Assembly: GCA_024679065.1 (NCBI GenBank)
Contig: JAGIQG010000001.1
Coordinates: 154,442,001 to 154,506,000, forward strand
Direction: 5' to 3'
Length of the DNA stretch: 64,000 nucleotides
Source: Sphyrna mokarran
Taxonomy: Eukaryota
Below the pieces are notes generated by a model. That model had not been told where the DNA came from and did not search any database. It saw nothing but the letters and a program-made list of their open reading frames with translations. This document shows positions 1 to 64,000 of the stretch, piece by piece. A program made the position numbers and the translations under genes. Within the stretch, counting starts at the first letter, position 1. Every line of letters begins with the position of its first letter.

Positions 1-1297
1 GATAACATACTCTGGTGGTGTGAATGAGATCTCAAACTTTAACTTAACGTATGTTCACATAAAAATACAAAAATAGATATAATCTGACTATCATGAACTA
101 TTTGATGAATTACTCATTCTTCAAATACAGAGTAATTCAGGTACTTTGTCTAATAATTATCTGTTACTGTCGATACAATATCAATGATTAATATACTGAA
201 ATAGTAGATATTCAAATTACAAAGAACTTCTTTGGCATAAGATGTTAGTACAAAATGGCAGCTTGACCCTAACCTTTTGTAGAACGCAGTCTCTAAAAAT
301 GATCAAATTAAGCAAACTAAACCCTATTAAAACAAAATACAAAACCCAGGTTTGCTTACAACATAATGGGTATAAATCTTTCTAAGAAGGAAAGTACATT
401 CTCTTTTGAAAATTGTGCTTGTTTGGGCCTCTTCTGGCACCAGTTCTACTTCCTGCCAGTTTCACCCTGATGGGAAAGTGGCCAAAGCATCTTCTGCTCA
501 CCCGCTTGCTAAAATAAAGATCAGGTAATTGAGCATCATCAGTGCCAGGTTTGCATGTACGAAGAATGACTATGCTACTTTCTAGTGGGTGTTTTCACCA
601 TTCTGCAGAGCAAATTAAAATAAATGGCTGTAAGAAGGGATTGAATTAGTGGTTACATCCTCTGGGTCATTTTAATTGTCTCCCCGGCTGCCAAACCAAA
701 TTATTTCACCGTTATTATCACATCTTCCTTTTAGGACAGTCTAGCCCATTTGGCATCAACCTTAAATGTCTTTTAACTTCCTGTCATTTACGTTTGTTTT
801 TTTTCTTCCTGTATCTGCTTCTTTCCTTGACTAATCCATCCCTTTTTCAAATTCCTTTCATGTTATTGTATTTCATTGTGCCAAATGTTTCCTATTTCAT
901 ATGAGCTTGGAGTCAGTAGTGCACCCCTACAGTTTCTTTGTAATAATCTCGCTAAGGCCAGTGTTCCAATTCCAACACCCTTTTCTTACAACATGCAGAA
1001 GATACTGCTTCTGCAGCCACAGTATATGTGTCAAGCTCTTCCACGGCTGCCCTGAGTGGAGTCAGCTGGTTTTAAACCCTCTCCCACTGCTCCTTCCTTT
1101 TTGGGCGACCATCCACACACTTGATAGGGGAGCTCATATTTTGCAAGGCCCACAGAGAGGTCTATTGACAATCTCCAAGGCGATTCGTAGTAATTAACAA
1201 GACTTTATTTCTACTTACAGTCTGGGGGGATTTTCATAATGTATGTCTGTGGAAGGGTGAGATGGTTAGCAATGTTAAATGTATGTTTCTGAATTGA

Positions 1298-4899: not shown

Positions 4900-5220
4900 A
4901 GAATCATAGAAATCCTACAGTGCAGAAAGAGGACCTTCTGCCCATCAAGTCTGCAATCCCAACCAGGCCCTACCCCCACATCCCTATATATATCCCTCTA
5001 ACCTATGCATCCCTAGGCACTAAGGGGCAATTCCTTAGCACGGCCAATCAACCTAACCCACACATCTTTGAACTGTGGGAGGAAACCGGAGTACCTGGAG
5101 GAAACCCACACAGACATGAGGAAAATGTGCAAACGCCACACAGACAGTGACCCAAGCTGGGAATCAAACCCAGAACCCTGGAGCTGTGGAGTAGCAGTGC
5201 TAACCACTGTGCTACCGTGC
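4900..5220 (-). mobile_element. V-SINE (HE1-like), near full length, CR1-type tail
   Basis: Reverse strand gcacggtagcacagtggttagcactgc (box A) ... gggtttgattcc (box B), V core, tail ttctgcactgtaggatttctatgattc. Confidence 0.9.
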
Positions 5221-5259
5221 TGAGAGAGGTTGCCAGCTGCCAATCAAAGGACTAGTTAG

Positions 5260-6240
5260 ATATGCGTGTCAAGGGAGGGGGGAATAAAATGAGAGAGCAG
5301 CTGTCAGTCAAAGGAACATTCGGATATAGGTGTTGGGGAACAGGAAAATAAAAAAGGGAAAGCTGTTAGTCAAGGGAACAGCTGGATATGGGGAAGGGGA
5401 AATGACTGAAGTGCCAGTTACAAGTAGCAGTTGCAGTGTTTGAAGGGGGGTTGATATAGGTATTAGGGAAAGGGGGATGTCTTTCTCCTTCTGAGTACAC
5501 ATACCAACTAACTTAAGAGCAGCTTCTTCTCTGTTGCCATCAGACTTTTGAATGGACCTACCTCACATCTTCCTCTGCACCCTAGCTACGACTGTAACAC
5601 CACATTCTCCACTCACTCCTTCCCTTCTCTATGTATGGTATGCTTTGTATGTGTAGTGCGCAAGAAACAATACTTTTCATTGAATACTAATACATGTTAC
5701 AATCATAAATCCAATCAAAAAAATGACAGCAGCAGTTGGATAGGGTGTGTGGTGGGGGCTTCGATATGGGTATCAGGAGGCGGGGGGGGGGGGGGTGGAT
5801 GAAAAGAGAGTGCAGCTATCAGTCAAGGGAACAGTTGGATATGACTGTCAGGGGAAAAGGAAAGTAGCTGAAGCTATCAGTTACAGCAGCAGCTGGATAT
5901 GGGGTGTGTGTGCGGTAGGGGATTGGATATGGGTGTTAGGGGAGATAAGAATGTGGATAAAAAGGGAGAGCAGCTGCCAGTGAGGGAACAGTTGGATATG
6001 GGTGTTGGGTAGGAGGGAAGTGGTTGAAGCTGTCAGTCAAAGCAGCATTTGGACATGGGTCTGTGTTGGGGGGGGGGGGGGGGGTTGGATATGGGTGTGT
6101 ATGTGTGGGGAGGTTGGATAGGGTGCCGGAGGGGGAGGGGGGGTGAATAAAAAGGGAGTGCAGCTGTCAGTTCCAGGGAACAGTTGGATACTGGGAGGGG
6201 GAAAAGTGGGCTGGAGCTGTCAGTCACAGCAGCAGCTGGG
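5260..6240 (+). repeat. Degenerate G-rich tandem repeat (~45-60 nt units) upstream of SETD7
   Basis: Recurring (c)agctgtcagtcaagggaacagttggatatgggtgt...ggg units, poly-G runs near 5782 and 6068, interrupted by a LINE tail at ~5500-5722. Confidence 0.8.
5500..5722 (+). mobile_element. 3' end of a Rex1/Babar-like LINE
   Basis: aagagcagcttcttctctgttgccatcagacttttgaat (KSSFFSVAIRLLN, Rex1-type C-terminus) plus tail; same family inverted at 45497-45705. Confidence 0.6.
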
Positions 6241-6650
6241 GGATGATGTCAGCGTCTGAACGCTGATTCCGGTTGAAGCAGGCAGTGTAGGGAGGCAGAG
6301 TTAGATAGAGGCAGTTCCCCCGGCCGGAGAGCAGCTCCCAGTCTTCGGGGCACCGAGAACAGGCAGCATGATGGACAGTGACGATGATAACGTGGAGGAG
6401 ACGGTAGAAGGTGAGTAGTGGGAATGTGTGCGGGGTTTGTTCCACACAGCCGCCTCCCCCCCCCCCCACTCCCCGCCCCTTGAAAGAAACCGAGCAGGAG
6501 GGAGGGACAGTGCGGTGCAGAGATATCCGGCCCCCAAATCACGCCTTTTAAAAGCGACTATTTTGTGTAACCGAACAAAGCATCGCAAACGTGCGCTGGT
6601 GAGAGGGGGGGAAAAAAAACCCATTCGCGACCACCCATAACCAGCACGGT
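6240..6650 (+). promoter_or_regulatory. SETD7: CpG-rich promoter, 5' UTR and start of intron 1 of SETD7
   Basis: Local CpG/GC enrichment in a CpG-depleted background; ETS core ttccgg 6267-6272; CRE/ATF-like tgatgtca 6244-6251; GC box cccgccc near 6472. Confidence 0.75.
6368..6410 (+). CDS. SETD7: SETD7 coding exon 1: (M)MDSDDDNVEETVE|G
   Basis: Tandem ATGs at 6368 and 6371; matches the vertebrate SETD7 N-terminus MDSDDE.VEE.VEG; donor gtgagt at 6411. Confidence 0.95.
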
Positions 6651-7520
6651 TCTAAATGAAATAAATGTTCAGAGGGGGAAAAAAAGTTTACTTTGGCGGC
6701 AGATCTTCCAGGGTTTTAATTTTTTTTTTTGCAAATCAACTAAAAGTGCCGATGTTAAAATTGGCAAAATCAATGGGTGCCAACTATAAGAATCAAAAAA
6801 AAAAATTCTCTTCGAAAAGAAACGTTCCTGGAATTCAGTGCATCCAAAGAAAAAGTAATTGGTTTAAAAATGAATGTGTTGGGCTACTTTAACAGTTATG
6901 TAATCCGGATTATTGTGATGCAGGCATTTCGAGTCAGTCGTGCAGAGTGAAAGCACCAGTGTTCTGGTGGGGGCGAAACTACACAGTGGGAATTTGCTGC
7001 ACACACAATTCACCTTCAGGGGTAAAGAGAGAGCCTCTTATTCCTTCTACAATGTAATCTTTGGCTCTGTTCCCCACGGGGGTAATTGCCCCTATTGTTA
7101 CCAATTTGATTGTACGATTCTTTGCCTCCATCAGGCCACTTGATAAGAACAAAGTTTCCCTATTTAATTTTAAATGTTACCAGCAACCGCGAGAGCAGAG
7201 GGGGTTAAACAAAAACAAATTTATCTTCCCTACCTTCCCCTCCCTTGTCATTGCGTGCTGATTTCAGTCGTGACAAATAACCCAGAGAAAAAAGTCACCA
7301 TCTCCAAACTGGATCTCACGTGGATTTAAAAACAACCATTCTTGAGCCTTCCTCCCGATCAAGTAAACAGGATCTAGGTGGTGTTTATAGTCAATAGCAG
7401 ATACTTAGTGTTTTAATGTTGCAGTAATGTGCAATTTTTTGGGGGGGAGGGTGGTTAAAATTATTTTACTTTTTGTGTGTCTGTCTGAGGTTCAGTAAGT
7501 TTAAAATGTTCCTGTTGTAG

Positions 7521-7650
7521 GTCCCTTGGATGAAGATAACCAGCCACATGGGTTCTGTAAAGTTACCTATGCCTCTGGTGACAGATTTGAAGGGCATTTT
7601 GTACATGGTGAGAAGAATGGTCGTGGGAAGTTCTATTTTTTTGATGGCAG
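7521..7650 (+). CDS. SETD7: SETD7 exon 2 (MORN repeats): GPLDEDNQPHGFCKVTYASGDRFEGHFVHGEKNGRGKFYFFDG
   Basis: Acceptor ttgtag, donor gtaaaa, 130 nt, phase continuous. Confidence 0.97.
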
Positions 7651-7994
7651 GTAAAAAAAACACAAGACCATCAATTTGAAACTTAACTTTAGCAGGATTT
7701 TTGTTTGTTGCCTGTGGTTTGGATTGTGTACATTTGTTTGGGGGATGGTCACTTTCTGTTCAGCCACTTGGTGCCAGCAAAATTTTGCGTTTATAGTCTG
7801 TGAATGCAGGAGATTCACATTCTGTAATGGATGTTTTGTTTAAATTGACTTTTGTAGACATTTGATAGTGTGTGCTTGCTGTAGTGTAACCTCAACAAAT
7901 TTCTGCTTTGCAAAACTGAAAATAATGTATTTTATGTTTTGACACACATCTATGGTGACAGTTAATAACCTATCTCTGGGTACTGTGCCCTAAG

Positions 7995-8296
7995 AGGGTG
8001 TTGGCAACCATGGATTTAGCATTGGACTGGTCCATGAATTTGCTTGTGGCAATCATGGACTTAGCACTGGATAGTCTGTGATTGTGCTTGGCAAAGTACT
8101 GCAGTGATTTGCCATTGCCTTCTGCAGTGTCAAACTTTCTCTTCTTCCAACATTTCTGCCATCAGGTGTATTGGAAGGCTGATGAACAACCTGTTTGGCC
8201 ATGTTATGAGTTCACCTTCCTTGGCTCCTGAAGTGTGACTTGAACCCAGAGTCTCTGGCTTAGAGGTAGGGACACTACTCACAGTGCCATAAGAGC
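7995..8296 (-). mobile_element. tRNA-headed SINE with RTE (BovB-like) motif
   Basis: Reverse strand: tggcactgtgagtagtg...gggttcaagtcac head, then gcagaaggcaatggcaaatcactgcagtactttgccaag; short tandem duplication at ~8000-8090. Confidence 0.6.
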
Positions 8297-8441
8297 TCCT
8301 AGATCAAAAGAGTTGAGTTCTAAATCTTTTCAGTTGCCGAGGGAGGTCTTTTCTTTCCTATTTTCTCTTTTTTCAATGGTGTCGATCTTCATGAAGGGAA
8401 GGATGGACGTCTCCAAGAATGGGATGAGTGCTGCCTTGCTG

Positions 8442-8476
8442 TGATGTAGAGATGCCGGCGTTGGACTGTGGTAAAC
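8442..8476 (-). mobile_element. 35-bp Penelope terminal fragment between 13-bp direct repeats
   Basis: tgatgtagagatgccggcgttggactg matches the ends at ~25650 and ~31400; flanks tgctgccttgctg / tgttgccttgctg. Confidence 0.6.
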
Positions 8477-9707
8477 TGTTGCCTTGCTGAGCAGTAGCTT
8501 TGTTTATATCACGAGGAGCACATTGAGGTCCTTGTCTCCTAATGTGTCCAGAGCAGAATCATGAAGTAATCTTGGGTGTATTAAGTCAAAATGCATTGCA
8601 TGCAGAATGACCTCCAGCAATTAATTATTCATGGAGTTGAGGTAGAGAGAAAGGCAAGTCTTTAAAGCTGAGTATATGGAAGAAAAATGTTGTATGATCC
8701 AAGTGACCAAAACACTGTATTGCATTATTACATTTTAATAAATCTTTTAGTTTGAGGACAAAATAGTGGTCTAGTGAAATCGCATTTAATATTGTTTATA
8801 TCTATACTCATTTTTGCAGGCAAAACTTAACTTGCTATGATTTTTAGTTTTCACATAAATTCCTAAGTCATCATTTATAATAGGATATATCTAGGTTGCG
8901 TTATCTTGTTACTACATTGTAATAGGTTTGGTCACCACATATCGTACTGCCTGCCACAAGGCATCAGTGCAGGTGAGAGCGGACAATGGGAAGGTCCATT
9001 GACCTCGGGCGGGATTTTATAATTTCAGGACAAGCAATGCTGTAAAATCCCACCCCAAATATTTTCTGAAGTTTCTCCATCTGAAATTTTTACTCTTACT
9101 AATTCACATTTTAAATCCCCAAGATGAGGATTTTTATGAAAAATAAAAATTTCAAGAAGTGTTAAATTTAAAAGCCTCCGTCTTTCCTGAAAGTTCATGA
9201 GTTTTTAACTCTTTCAGTTTAGTTGTGCAGTTTGAGCCTGTGCAGTGTACCTAATTTCCCACCATGTCCATCAACCACATTGGAATATTTTTCTGCAGCT
9301 TCCAAAAAATTTTATTGAGGGAAATGCATGTGTATTGATCAGCATTATAAATGAGATACAATATAATTTTTTTCTAAGAGCTGCATGTCAGTTTGGTGTT
9401 ACAAAAAAAACCTTACAGAAGTTAAACTTGAGTCTCTGTTCATTCAAAAAAGAATTTGAACACTAATGTCAATTAATTATCCCATCTATGCAATGGTTAC
9501 AGTTTTTTCTTTAAAAGTCAGTGCTAGCCACTTACACCTATGAGAGTTTCTAATCTTGACAAGACAAACAGAAAAGCCTGCATGAGTTGAGGGAGTGAGA
9601 CAGGAAGAATAAAATAATTAGAGAAAAGTGGGCAGTTTTTCTTTTCAGTCTTATTTTTAAATAAAATGAGTAAAACAAAACCTTTGGAAATTAGAAGACA
9701 CGAAAGC

Positions 9708-9863
9708 ATAGAATAGACTCCTACAGTGCAGAAGGAGGCCATTCGGCCCATCAAGTCTGCTCCGACCACAATCTCACCCAAACTCCACAAACAGTGACCC
9801 AAGCCGGGAATCAAACCTGGGTCCATGGTGATATGAGGCAGCAGTGATAACCACTGTGCCACC
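9708..9863 (-). mobile_element. V-SINE, internally deleted, CR1-type tail
   Basis: Tail joined directly to head region; V core missing. Confidence 0.85.
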
Positions 9864-10859
9864 TGACAGGGGGAGCAGAAAAAGAAAGAAACAGATTGAG
9901 CAAGGGGAGCCATTGTGCATCTACTTCTGGGGGCAGGCCAGTAGAAGTAATGAACCTAATGCAGTGCATTTACGTGAAAGAGGTGGCAAGGCCAAGAGGA
10001 AGTAAAATTGAATGGGCTGGAAAATGAGCAGTTGGTTCTATTCTATTTGTTTCCCATCAGAAAGCTAGGTTAATAACTTATCCTGGTGTTCCAGTTGGAA
10101 CTGTTGAAATTTGAGGCTGGAGATGAGGATTGGCATGCACATGAACTGGCAAAGAAACGTGTGGCCAGAATAAGTCTGGTAATTGGAGTCAGTTGGTGTT
10201 TTTAGATTCACCATTTAGATAAAATTGGATTTTATTCCAAATGATAAAATGTGGGATGATATTGATGATATCCAGATGTTTCCATTATTAATCACCCGAA
10301 ATTGGTACAAAAATAAATATGCTAGCTTGCAATACTACTTACTAGGCAGAAAAGCACGTGCTGTTATCTCATCGGTCCTTTGATGGAATGGACAAAGATA
10401 TTCTTGATGCACTTCTCGGATCTTTATAATATAATATGTGCAGGAACAAATTTACTAAATTGATACATCTTCTTGACACTTCAAGCAATGATTATTCAAC
10501 TTGAAGACCAGCAGAAATAATTTTGAAGTTAGGGGCATTACTGACTATGAAGGTCTTTGAACCAAAAGTTAAGTCATGCAGCTGTTAGTTTTAAACAAAA
10601 ATATAGAACACTTGCCAGCCAGCAAGTCAGCAGTATAAGTTGAGAAAACAGCTCAGTTAACTTTTCGGGTACAACCCACTCTTTAGAGCTGGTTAAATGA
10701 GAACAAAACAATGGTAGGGAGGAAAAATACACGTAAGGCATAGTGATTTACAGAGTGCTACAATAGGATCAGAAAATGGTTAAAATGTAGAAGCAATTAT
10801 GTACAGGAGTCAAAAAAAAAGCTGAGATTAATCAAGGAAACAAGGCACATACATTCATC

Positions 10860-11585
10860 ACCTCAGTTTCTCAAAGTGATTTGAAGTGTGGTTCACTGTT
10901 GTAATGTAGGAAGTATAGCAGTCAATTTTCACAAAACAGCAACAAGGCAATGACAAAATAACTTTTTTCATTGATTTTATTTTTATTTCCATAAATACAC
11001 TTTATTCAAAAAATATAAAAGTACATTGTTCAAATTTGACATCACATAAATGTGGTGCAGATCAGTTTCTTTCACTATGTACATGAGCTGCCTAATTACA
11101 GGTTATATTTATAATGTACATTTGCGTTTCATGTCAGACCATTTTCTAGTCGTTATAGTTTGAATCATCTTAGAAGGTGGGTGAAGGGAAGAGGTTGCTG
11201 CTTAGAAAGTGGCCTTTCACCATTGAGACTTTGTAGCAGCTGCACTGAACTTTAGTGTGACTCTCAGCACATAGTCCTAAGACCTTAATGGCCAGTCTAC
11301 AACACGCTGTTTGTAGTGAGACTCTGTGTGTATATTTTATATTGGCCTGGAGACTGAGGAGAAAACCCTTGCTGCTGAAATAGTCGTGAGATGTTTTCTA
11401 TTCAGCTCACAGTAAAAACGGAGCATTAGTTTAATGTCTCATCTGAAAGGCAGTGCCTTTGACAATACAGTAATCCCTCGGTATTAGATTGGAATGTCAG
11501 CCTGGACTTTACGCCGAGGTCTCTGGAATGGGATTGGAAGCTGCAGTCCTCTGACTCAGAATGCTACCAACTCACCCGTGGCTGC
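10860..11585 (-). mobile_element. Deu-domain SINE split by a Tx1/L1-type insertion
   Basis: Tail part 10860-10970; core and head part 11330-11585 (tttaatgtctcatctgaaaggcagtgcctttgacaatacagtaatccctc). Confidence 0.65.
10975..11310 (-). mobile_element. 3' end of a Tx1/L1-like LINE
   Basis: Reverse strand encodes degenerate CCRLA..DYVLRVTLKFSAAATKSQW, followed by 3' UTR and A-rich tail. Confidence 0.5.
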
Positions 11586-23289: not shown

Positions 23290-23506
23290 ATAGCCTTAAC
23301 TCAGCCTTTTGGCTAAGATCAAGTCGAAAATAGGGTGCAGAGCTTTATTTTATCAACTTTGCTCTCTTGTGGAGACCTTGAATTGGATTCAATTGGATTT
23401 TGAATTTAGTTTTTAGAGCAAGCAGGGAACAGATTTGGGTTTGCCCAGTCCATTCTGAGCAGTGACTTTGTAACTTTAAGGATGCAGTAAAACATTTAAA
23501 AACAAA
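23290..23506 (+). mobile_element. U2 snRNA-headed short repeat (copy 1)
   Basis: ctcagccttttggctaagatcaagt is U2 5' region; body gtggagaccttgaattggattca shared with the 63860 copy; A-rich end. Confidence 0.7.
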
Positions 23507-23757: not shown

Positions 23758-23947
23758 GATGGAGGCTGCATTGTAGGAGAGGTGAATGAAGACGGGGAGA
23801 TGACTGGTGATAAAATAGCTTATGTTTATCCTGACGGCAAGATAGCCCTGCTTGGAAAATTTGTTGACGGGGAAATAATCGAAGGACACCTGGCAACTCT
23901 TAAAGGTGTAACAGAAGGAAAGCCCCAGTTCGAGCTGTCTCCAGATG
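23758..23947 (+). CDS. SETD7: SETD7 exon 4: [63 protein letters not shown]
   Basis: Acceptor tgacag, donor gtgaga, 190 nt. Confidence 0.97.
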
Positions 23948-58959: not shown

Positions 58960-61790
58960 AGAGTGATCAAAGCATGGTCTTTATGGAGGCCAAGTCCCAT
59001 CTTCACAATCCCTTCATTGTGTTATGTGGTACTGTCACTGTGCTAAATGGGATTGATTTAGAACAGATCTAGCAATTTGACTAGGAAACCATGATGCAGC
59101 AATAGAATTGTAGTCAACCACACTCTAACCTAATAACTTGGCATATTCTCCCATGACCTGGGAATCCCCCACTCTACTATTACCACCAGGCCAGAGGATC
59201 AACCCTGCTTCATGAAAAGTACGGAATAGTATGCAGGAGCAGCACCAAGCACGTGTAAAAATGAAGTGTCAACTTAATGAAGCTACAACATTGGGCTACT
59301 TGCATGCACAGCAGCATAAACAACAAGTGACAGAAAAAGCTAAGTGATTCCACAACTATTAGATCAGAACTAAACTCTGCAGTCCTGCCACATCCAGTTG
59401 TGAAAAGTTGAGAACAATTAAACCATTCGCCAAAGGAGTCTCCATAAATATCCCCATCCTCAATGCTGGGGAAGCCCAGCACGTTACAAAAGATAAGGCT
59501 GAAGCACTCGCAACAATCTTCAATCAGATGTACCAAGTGGATGATCCACCTCAGCCTACAACAGAGGTTCCCAACACCTTGGATGCCAGTCTTCAGACAA
59601 TTTAATTCATTCCACGTGATATCAAGAAACATCACAAGGTACTGGATACTGCAAAGGCTTTGGGCCCTGATGATATTCCAACAGTAGTACTAAAAGACCT
59701 GTGCTTCAGAACTTAATGTATCCCTAGCCAAGCTCTTTCAGTATAGCTTCAACACTGGCATCAAGCTGGCAATGTGGAAAATTGCCCAGATGTGTTGTGT
59801 ACATATATGCAAATGCAATTTGGCCAATTGCTACCCGAGCAGTCTACACTGAGTGAAACAATGGAAGGAGTCATCAACAGTGCTATCAAGCAGCACTTGT
59901 TTAGCAGTAACCTGCTCAGGGGTGTTCAGTTTTGGTTATGCCAGGGTTCTCGGCTACTAACTTCATCACCGGCCTTGGTTCAAACATGGACGAACCAGCT
60001 GAACTCTAACAGTGAGGTGAGAGTCACTGTCTTTCACGTCAAGGCAATATTTGACTGAGTGTGGCATCAAGGAGGCCCAGCAAAACTGGAATTAGTGGGA
60101 GTTGGGATAAAAATTTTCTACTGGATGGAGTCATGTCCACAACAAAGGAAAATGGTTGTTCTTGTTGGAGGGCAATCACTTCAGTTCCATGACATCACTC
60201 TTTTCTTTTAACTCCTGTAGTGTTATTTAAAGACCTTCCTTTGATCATAAAGTCAGAAGTGAGGATGTTTGTTGTTTGTATAATGTTCAGCATTCATAAC
60301 TCCTTAGGTACTAAAGCAGTCCATGTCCAAATGTGGTAAGCCTTGGACAATATTCAGGCTTGGGTTTGACAAGTGGCAAGTAACATTTGTGTTATACAAA
60401 TGCTAGGTAATAACCATTTCCAACAAGAATCAATCTAACACTTGCTGCTTGACATTGAATGGCATTACCATCAGTGAATCCCTTACTTTCAATTTAATAT
60501 TGATCAGAAACTGAGCTACACCTGCTTTGTAAATGCTTTGGCTACAAGAGCAGGTGAGAATCTAGGAATCCTGCAATGACTAACTTGCCTCCTGACTTTC
60601 TAATACCTGTCCACCAGGTATGGACCAAAAATATTGGTCCATAAAATTATTTCCTATATCTGTTGCAGTGGGAAGAATAGGAAAGCAAAATATTTTAATG
60701 GAGACTTTAGAATGTTTTTGTTACAGAAGATCTGGATATCCGAAGACATGAAGTACAAAGAGTTAGAATGCAGGCACAGTAGAAGACAAAATTACAAGGG
60801 AAATGGAATATAAAAGACTTGCTAGAATTGTACATGGCACTGGTGATGTCTTGGTCTATTTCTAAAAAAAAAGAGGGGATATACTGTGAACTTCCACTAT
60901 TCACAGAAGGTTCACCAAGTTGTTTCTTGAATTAATTCATAGGATGTGGGCATCCCTAATTGCCCTTGAGAAGCTGGTAGTAAATTGCCTGCTTGAATTG
61001 CTGCAGTCCATGAATGTAGATGTATTGCAGTTGGAAGGGGGAGGGAGAAAACAGAAGTTCCAGAATTTCAACCTAGCAACAGTGAAGGAACAGCAATTTA
61101 TTTCGAAGTCGGGTTGTTGAGTGGTTGTGCTCCCACGTATCTGGTGTCCTTGTCTTAAGTGATAGTAGCCACAAGTTTGGAAAGTACTATTTAAAGTAGC
61201 CTAGATTGCATCTTGTCAATGGAACGCACTGCTGCTATTATGTGTCGGTGGTGTAGGGAATGGATGTTTGTAGATGGAGTGCTAGTCAAGTGGGGAGCTT
61301 TCCTGGATGCTGTTGAGCTACCCGAGTGCTGTTGGAGCTGCACTCATCCAGGGAATATTTTGTATTTACCTGGATGAGTGCAGCTCCAACAGCACTCGGG
61401 TAGCTCAACAGCATCCAGGAAAGCTCCCCACTTGACTAGCACTCCATCTACAAACATCCATTCCCTACACCACCGACACATAATAGCAGCAGTGCGTTCC
61501 ATTGACAAGATGCAATCTAGGCTACTTTAAATAGTACTTTCCAAACTTGTGGCTACTATCACTTAAGACAAGGACACCAGATACGTGGGAGCACAACCAC
61601 TCAACAACCCGACTTCGAAATAAATTGCTGTTCCTTCACTGTTGCTAGGTTGAAATTCTGGGACTTCTGTTTTCTCCCTCCCCCTTCCAACTGCAATACA
61701 TCTACATTCATGGACTGCAGCAATTCAAGCAGGCAATTTACTACCAGCTTCTCAAGGGCAATTAGGGATGCCCACATCCTATGAATTAAT
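58960..61790 (+). mobile_element. LINE (same family as 47330), interrupted by an inverted duplication
   Basis: KDKAEALATIFNQ, VRVTVFHVKAIFD; reads to 60616 and resumes at ~61353 to tail caattagggatgcccacatcctatgaat. Confidence 0.8.
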
Positions 61791-63859: not shown

Positions 63860-64000
63860 ATCACTTCTTGGCCTTTTGGCTAAGATCAAGCGTAGGATCA
63901 AGTCCGAGATCAGATGTAATGCCTATTCTTGTCAGCTTGGGGCTCTAGTAATTGTGTCTAGTGGGGACCATGAATTGGATTCATTTCAAATTGGTTTTGG
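63860..64000 (+). mobile_element. U2 snRNA-headed short repeat (copy 2, runs off the window end)
   Basis: 63860-63895 atcacttcttggccttttggctaagatcaagcgtag matches U2 nt 1-36 with 3 mismatches, then non-U2 body. Confidence 0.78.

Follow-up and report, generated by a model that had tools for sequence, protein, structure and literature searches.

We analysed a window of 64,000 nucleotides from Sphyrna mokarran, that is, the whole stretch between positions 154,442,001 and 154,506,000 of contig JAGIQG010000001.1. Two copies of an interspersed repeat, called family A here, were found in it, one of subfamily A1 and one of subfamily A2. The features are as follows.

23290..23503, + strand: the other family A copy, of subfamily A2; full-length apart from two short deletions, ending in an A/T tail (nhmmer 120.8 bits, model positions 7-218)
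23758..23946, + strand: SETD7 coding exon, which places the host among the elasmobranchs (identity 92% to a protein of the white shark and 89% to two rays, with 76% for the next best match)
63860..64000, + strand: A1 copy of family A, of whose ~220 bases the first 141 lie in the window (agrees with the A1 majority at 188 of 213 positions)
63860..63894, + strand: fresh U2 head, U2 nt 1-35 (alignment to the genome's own U2 gene)
63896..63943, + strand: 48-nt hairpin region, a second GATCAAG unit and an old U2 nt 22-60 segment, decayed in this copy
63906..64000, + strand: older, diverged U2 sequence forming the body, starting at about nt 23 and reaching the Sm-site region (aligned locally with U2 nt 37-191)

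The A1 copy runs about 75 bases beyond the end of the window, to the equivalent of window position ~64,075 (G000:C1:~154506075), where an A/T-rich tail follows. The A2 copy lies about 250 bases upstream of the SETD7 exon on the same strand. A second copy near 23290 had been predicted from the sequence, and it is real: over 23300-23492, 163 of 187 positions are identical to the A2 majority. Elsewhere in the window, a near-perfect inverted repeat of about 30 bp (61323-61398) was below the cut-off against two microRNA models and is likely to be a palindromic repeat.

Structure and abundance of family A

The genome's own U2 gene (L061; Rfam RF00004, 189.7 bits) was used as the U2 reference; there are four near-identical U2 genes, spaced by about 8 kb on contig C949. 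According to the original prediction, 63860-63895 matches U2 nt 1-36 at 33 of 36 positions, with two mismatches due to CpG decay and a following GATCAAG repeat. Comparison with the genome's own gene confirmed this count. The mismatches at nt 4 and 10 fall at CpGs, the third one, at nt 32, is a family trait, and the repeat is real. The match was also said to stop at nt 36; in fact, the alignment goes on through an old U2 body.

Family A, of about 220 bp, consists of U2 nt 1-35, a 13-nt linker, a diverged U2 segment of about nt 23-181 and an A-rich tail. The U2-like body carries two short insertions. Of the U2 structure it retains stems IIb and III as well as the Sm site, but not stem IIa, nor stem IV, which is eroded. 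In an alignment of 31 copies (30 and the 23290 copy), the 5' edge is sharp and falls on U2 +1, and the A/T-rich 3' end is common to them; the family aligns to the genome's own U2 gene over nt 1-181. When the head was removed, the family majority scored 113.5 against U2 nt 37-191 (1,000 shuffles, 26 ± 5, maximum 54). The window copy alone scored 77 (300 shuffles, 27 ± 5, maximum 44.5), and five natural copies including it scored 77-110 against shuffle maxima of 40-46. Over U2 23-160, 103 of 137 aligned positions (~75%) are identical in the body. The body had been regarded as non-U2, either a foreign sequence fused to a U2 head or a LINE 3'-end derivative; these scores identify it as a second, older and degenerate U2. 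Judged by these alignments, family A is a mobile U2-derived SINE and not a U2 head fused to a foreign body.

The body differs from U2 at 34 positions. At 28 of these, the change is present in 70% or more of 86 copies, which share the insertions too. Because 28 derived changes are common to them, the copies must descend from few master copies. A U2 head on a LINE-derived body (a non-autonomous Keno or Utopia derivative), or a pile of independent U2 pseudogenes, is very improbable. The first bases of the partner LINE described below do resemble the A linker, weakly, over only about 13 bases that are partly U2 nt 25-31 itself, and the AATAAA-like signal and T/A run at the last bases of A loosely resemble the LINE tail. 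However, the body aligns to U2 and not to the LINE 3' end, which refutes the strong form of this idea: BLAST matched no part of the last 410 bases of the LINE to the interior of an element of family A or B. The independent pseudogenes are ruled out by the shared derived substitutions and insertions. Family A resembles processed U2 pseudogenes in being U2-derived, retroposed, dispersed and numerous in this genome, whereas such pseudogenes follow the present U2. Many ordinary U2 retrocopies (L066-L090) are also present; they carry about 35 bases of 3' flank beyond the mature end, as if derived from a precursor, and comprise two U2 sequence types.

The majority head is identical to U2 nt 1-30 at 30 of 30 positions, against ~75% for the body, so by sequence the head is probably younger than the body or under separate constraint. 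The copies have a retroposon anatomy, namely a fixed 3' end with an A-rich tail and variable 5' truncation. Upstream of full-length copies the DNA is unrelated, without shared 5' extensions, and a shared non-U2 upstream sequence was absent in 29 loci picked by the 3' half of the element. A fixed head-body junction, TSDs and a common 3' tail had been proposed as checks. Only the common A/T-rich 3' end was found; the head junctions vary among copies, and TSDs were not in excess (6/58 versus 29/523 for the control).

A DNA search of the 2.77-Gb assembly with 63860-64000 gave 1,514 candidates. The 41 matches listed are on many contigs and, apart from the self-match, are 75-85% identical to the query. 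A body-only 16-mer had 766 exact matches genome-wide and its reversed control 0. Comparable 16-mers survive in 2-5 of 30 copies, and the body 16-mer in 4 of 29 copies chosen by another region, which yields an estimate of 4,600-11,500 copies. In 100 evenly placed 10-kb stretches we found three A, two B and one U2-headed LINE, and none in the reversed controls; for A, this sampling corresponds to 8,300 copies (95% interval 1,700-24,300). Thus, family A has about 5,000-11,000 old copies. The expectation of a mobile, sizeable family is borne out, and the genome-wide spread rules out a local duplication of only two copies. In all counts, L031 (the same copy as L004) was excluded, and L025 (3'-truncated) was excluded from the profile.

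Among 30 consecutive loci selected by a body motif, 21 align to model position 22 or earlier; a stricter test for U2 1-24 was passed by 14/30 and 11/29 loci, the remainder being 5'-truncated or decayed. The 86 copies cluster into A1, A2 and a truncated group. Their mean identity to their own subfamily majority is 0.84-0.86 (best 0.94), and overall they are 83-86% identical to the consensus. At least half of the sampled body words were present in 14 sequencing runs, where an orthologous copy and family presence are not distinguishable; with the likely source excluded, the runs represent three other labelled organisms and one unlabelled set from four studies. No RNA run was listed among them, which has no bearing on expression.

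Family A showed no TC bias after the tail (3/32). Flanks were shared in 43/178 cases versus 33/178 for control flanks, and no host transposon appeared as a dominant target. Head-to-tail neighbours were found: A-A in L006, L023 and L052, B-type-A in L058 and L233, and A-LINE in L214, across a short simple repeat. There is almost no spacer in the L006 and L052 dimers. Among 30 unbiased loci, A stands head-to-tail with A, B-type or LINE sequence in three (L233, L241, L243), while about 0.01 would be expected from density (an estimate).

Family B, the partner LINE and the U2 target site

Family B is a composite of about 310 bp that is younger than A (example L104:8470-8785; loci L139-L168), with a density of about 2 per Mb in a random sample. 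The search gave 3,420 candidates; the best 40 of the 3,420 were 88-91% identical to the query and 94.8% to their majority, a sample biased to young copies. B consists of U2 1-40, 65 bases without assignment and two A-type units. The units score 101 and 111.5 against A versus 48.5 and 31 against U2, and on these scores B is built from A-type units. The 65 bases end in an Sm-site-like T run at the same 5' distance as in U2; they may be heavily diverged U2 41-105. TSDs were found for 9/30 B copies versus 13/131 control pairs (~10%), including one clean 13-bp case (L155). Away from U2, TC follows the B tail in 8/29 copies (background 9%, p = 0.004), which is a mild echo of the target site. Shorter or dimeric relatives (L231, L238, L240, L243, L330) stop shortly past the Sm-like site and have a poly-A signal of their own; they represent further subfamilies between A and B.

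The partner LINE (L169) is decayed, about 5 kb long, and retains zinc-knuckle-like ORF1 pieces. RVT_1 matches were obtained in two of five L169 fragments, one of them above the cut-off. An endonuclease fragment, itself without a Pfam match, shares 52-54% identity with two Exo_endo_phos proteins, of which one is from a ray. These similarities point to a Tx1-like LINE of the Keno type with APE-type endonuclease and RT regions. By BLAST, 15 of 30 LINE 5' loci carry U2 heads, and six match family A over about nt 1-49. Many LINE copies are dispersed away from U2 genes, bearing U2 or U1-like heads.

According to PMC4640811, the sequence flanking Keno and Utopia on the 3' side begins with U2 nt 39, and PMC6136364 gives the same target sequence. 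We searched the genome for poly-A followed by U2 nt 39-51 as an exact pattern and found 17 matches at 12 loci, compared with one for the control. The loci comprise five LINE 3' ends, four B copies, one B-like dimer, one LINE-like tail without assignment and one chance match. A LINE 3' flank at U2 nt 39 was also seen in L082, L183 and, approximately, L086. B and the Tx1-like LINE share the exact Keno target, i.e., poly-A and then U2 nt 39. Their heads end at or just past the nt 38/39 target. Between tandem LINE copies lies U2 39-58, which looks like a duplication of 20 bp. Family A occupied this site in 0 of the 12 junction loci and a separate junction pattern gave 0 matches, while exact junction patterns lose most copies as old as family A. 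The predicted tie to a U2-targeting LINE, of the Tx1/Keno type, is seen for B and likely for A, which is connected indirectly through the common head, its descendant B and the head-to-tail neighbours. Utopia, named as well, is not implicated, because the LINE found carries an APE-type endonuclease region.

Some arrangements around the LINE are worth recording. The 5' ends at L211, L213, L217, L218 and L219 (~1380-1500, oriented strand) bear a head that we take to be U1-like, followed by a U2 fragment; Rfam gave a weak U1 match in one of these five heads (E = 0.014). They resemble crocodilian Tx1-2_Crp and SINEU-2. At L179-L189 there are dispersed units of U2 39-191, a spacer of ~200 bp and U2 1-38..57, flanked by LINE ends. 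These units derive either from a second U2 array of short period, now in remnants, or from 3' transductions by the LINE; no intact U2 gene of this type was found. At L098 (G000:C557:766560 region, minus strand), U2 upstream DNA and U2 1-38 adjoin a piece of LINE endonuclease sequence that is 5'-truncated; this locus is at a great distance from the array.

The insertion at L170 consists of U2 upstream DNA, U2 1-37, B, an A-tail, U2 40-191 and the 3' flank. It is about 40 kb from the intact U2 array and one of only six loci with upstream motif and head. Its B copy is decayed (83% to the consensus) and the promoter is split by another repeat, so L170 shows the architecture and is not a proven master. 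L183, within a LINE array, has a second type of upstream DNA followed by U2 1-40 and B; the full LINE in L169 lies behind this second type too. From their position, the upstream stretches at L170, L183 and L169 would be promoters, and vertebrate snRNA promoters are external (PMC4494074, accessible text). Transcription from a U2 promoter, as originally proposed, is likely. Loci with U2 upstream DNA were seen for B (L170, L183) and not for A: four genome searches placed A behind either U2 upstream sequence in 0/8, 0/11, 0/6 and 0/1 cases, and these searches are insensitive, the first having missed L170 and the second L169. The architecture of promoter capture is seen for B at two loci, and the mechanism would extend to family A.

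Several features may reflect the polymerase. Runs of at least four T occur in family A at positions 15, 65 and 135, which would argue against Pol III, and Rfam gave no tRNA or 5S match at element positions. An AATAAA-like signal before the tail is fixed in B and present in 32/80 A copies. The internal T runs and AATAAA-like signals appear to fit Pol II.

We consider it probable that family A is a non-coding U2-derived retroposon, likely copied by a Keno-type Tx1 LINE from masters that likely lay inside U2 genes and used the U2 upstream promoter. Alternatively, a free-standing variant U2 gene with its own promoter, never inside another U2 gene, could have drifted, gained internal duplications and a poly-A signal, and been retroposed by any L1/Tx1 machinery, as monomeric Alu was from 7SL. 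The colinearity with U2 over nearly its whole length, the retained stems and Sm site, the lack of A at the nt 39 site and the common ordinary retrocopies agree with such a gene. We nevertheless think it unlikely. An intact head followed by a ~75% body that restarts at nt ~23 is in line with later addition of the head, use of the U2 site is demonstrated for B, which is assembled from A units, and no variant gene was found behind either upstream sequence.

Heads might also arise if reverse transcription switched templates between U2 snRNA and the element, with masters read through from unrelated flanking promoters, as Kojima proposed for crocodilian SINEU. The nearly spacerless dimers and the variable head junctions would suit this, and so would the U1-like LINE heads, which a U2 target does not explain. 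However, full-length copies start sharply at U2 +1 next to unrelated DNA, the B and LINE heads stop at or just past nt 38/39, and the LINE tandems are spaced by U2 39-58. We rate template switching as still less probable than the variant gene, and prefer copying by the Keno-type LINE from masters within U2 genes.

The hairpin from the branchpoint stem-loop

A 48-nt hairpin is common to the folds of A1, A2 and both B units. The majorities reach -16 to -21 kcal/mol versus -0.8 to -2.9 for the U2 segment, and the inner stem is the branchpoint-interacting stem-loop of U2. The second GATCAAG unit of this region resembles the 5' end of the partner LINE. In 44 distinct natural copies (L034 and L039, with head deletions, and copies needing gaps were excluded), 85% of cells pair, compared with 79.5% after shuffling and 31-48% after sliding, and 69 cells are changed on both sides versus 28 in shuffled data. 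Two other pairing measures on these copies were not above shuffles; the copies represent only four lineages.

We also compared the lineages under a simple substitution model, with the structure chosen after the sequences were seen, to which all the following p-values are subject. From A to B unit 1 there are four double compensatory changes among 10 substitutions (p about 0.003). From A1 to B unit 2, 9/9 pairs are kept (p = 0.001), and from U2 to A2, 9/9 pairs are reached (p = 0.0015). The change from U2 to A1 was not significant (p = 0.15). Of the 19 proposed pairs, RNAalifold recovered only 6, and the energy was weak. Old copies taken singly fold weakly (z from 0.4 to -2.2), and the window copy (z = 0.42) folds no better than its shuffles.

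A30G is found in 85% of copies, and A2 adds U43A. In the accessible text of PMC13019295, A30G and U43A are the laboratory-built mutations M1 and M2 that stabilise the stem-loop. More than 80% of copies have changes at bases 36 and 38, which serve in branch recognition, and the old U2 unit could therefore not read branch points. The covariation suggests that the hairpin was kept with compensatory changes in A and B and may have a function. It could serve as a handle for the LINE protein, in RNA stability or in avoiding the spliceosome.

Relation to known retroposons and possible mechanism

SINEU has a 5' end derived from U2 or U1; according to the accessible text of PMC4494074, none was found outside crocodilians, SINEU-1 has about 7,700 copies, and copies are 83-92% identical to the consensus. 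Like SINEU, the shark elements have a U2-derived 5' end, are shorter than 500 bp, are non-coding, end in poly-A, contain internal oligo-T and include 5'-truncated copies. As far as that description goes, recurrent head addition leading to composite subfamilies, tandem insertions, a similar age and copy number, and a Tx1-lineage partner with matching snRNA heads are also common to both. Family A is closest in plan to the described SINEU-3, which is mostly U2, but has insertions and a renewed head instead of the ~50-bp deletion of SINEU-3. In contrast to the crocodilian elements as described, the host is an elasmobranch, there is no Mariner-N4_AMi-like target, the target seen being U2 itself, and promoter-bearing insertion loci exist. 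By description, family A has the structural features of SINEU and is none of SINEU-1, -2 or -3 by host, target or internal plan. The forecast of a SINEU-like family in a cartilaginous fish thus agrees with its structure.

The partner LINE is like Keno, as far as this is described, in ending with poly-A before U2 nt 39 onward and in its APE-type endonuclease and RT regions. Unlike the described Keno, many of its copies are dispersed with U2 or U1-like heads, as in crocodilian Tx1-Mar. In their accessible parts, PMC4640811 and PMC6136364 list Keno from frogs, fish, lancelet and hydra and name no SINE partner.

We found no chondrichthyan SINEU in the literature covered, to which Repbase, Dfam and subscription papers did not belong. 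The elephant-shark SINE paper (PMC5499810) contains no occurrence of U2 snRNA, SINEU or Tx1, and the accessible part of a 2017 review names SINEU for crocodilians only. Family A is likely to be a new, independent SINEU-type family; we judge the chance that Repbase or Dfam already has an entry for it to be about one in three.

Our preferred reading, copying by a Keno-type LINE from masters inside U2 genes, can be described in steps. The LINE machinery inserts RNAs at U2 nt 38/39, as is seen for the LINE and B and would also hold for A. A SINE landing in a U2 gene would gain the U2 promoter, the start site and a fresh head. Pol II would then make a polyadenylated RNA from U2 +1, which the LINE RT may copy into mostly random sites. 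Repeated rounds could have added new heads and given the composite family B. The masters may have kept the strengthened branchpoint hairpin as a LINE-protein handle or to keep the RNA out of the spliceosome. We tentatively go further, at slightly short of an even chance: U2 arrays and a Keno-type LINE might act as a SINE factory, in which a promoterless RNA inserts at U2 nt 38/39, captures a Pol II promoter and a head, and scatters, while selection on masters locked the branchpoint stem-loop shut, including by A30G and U43A.

Monomeric Alu (FAM/FLAM) is a 7SL RNA that was remodelled into a SINE with part of its fold kept and later dimerised. 7SL has an internal Pol III promoter, whereas U2 has none; thus, an external promoter is needed. 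The Alu/7SL analogy was also drawn for SINEU (PMC4494074), where the accessible text leaves SINEU transcription as an open question. In that text, SINEU is the one vertebrate SINE class without an internal promoter and is reported only from crocodilians. Its occurrence here shows that a second vertebrate lineage, very distant from the crocodilians, either gave rise to the class or retained it. Because a single genome contains the SINEs, their partner LINE, the shared target and promoter-bearing insertion loci, promoter capture by U2 targeting can be tested directly. If the SINE factory exists, SINEU would have been born twice, independently, and the question of how snRNA-headed SINEs without a promoter are transcribed would be answered, for crocodilians as well. 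The covarying hairpin offers a naturally occurring set of branchpoint stem-loops with increased stability, and it is a candidate signal for the Tx1 reverse transcriptase.

Old insertions of these families could serve as phylogenetic markers. In shark annotation, thousands of copies may be wrongly labelled U2 genes; three matches that contain B lie above or near the U2 cut-off of Rfam.
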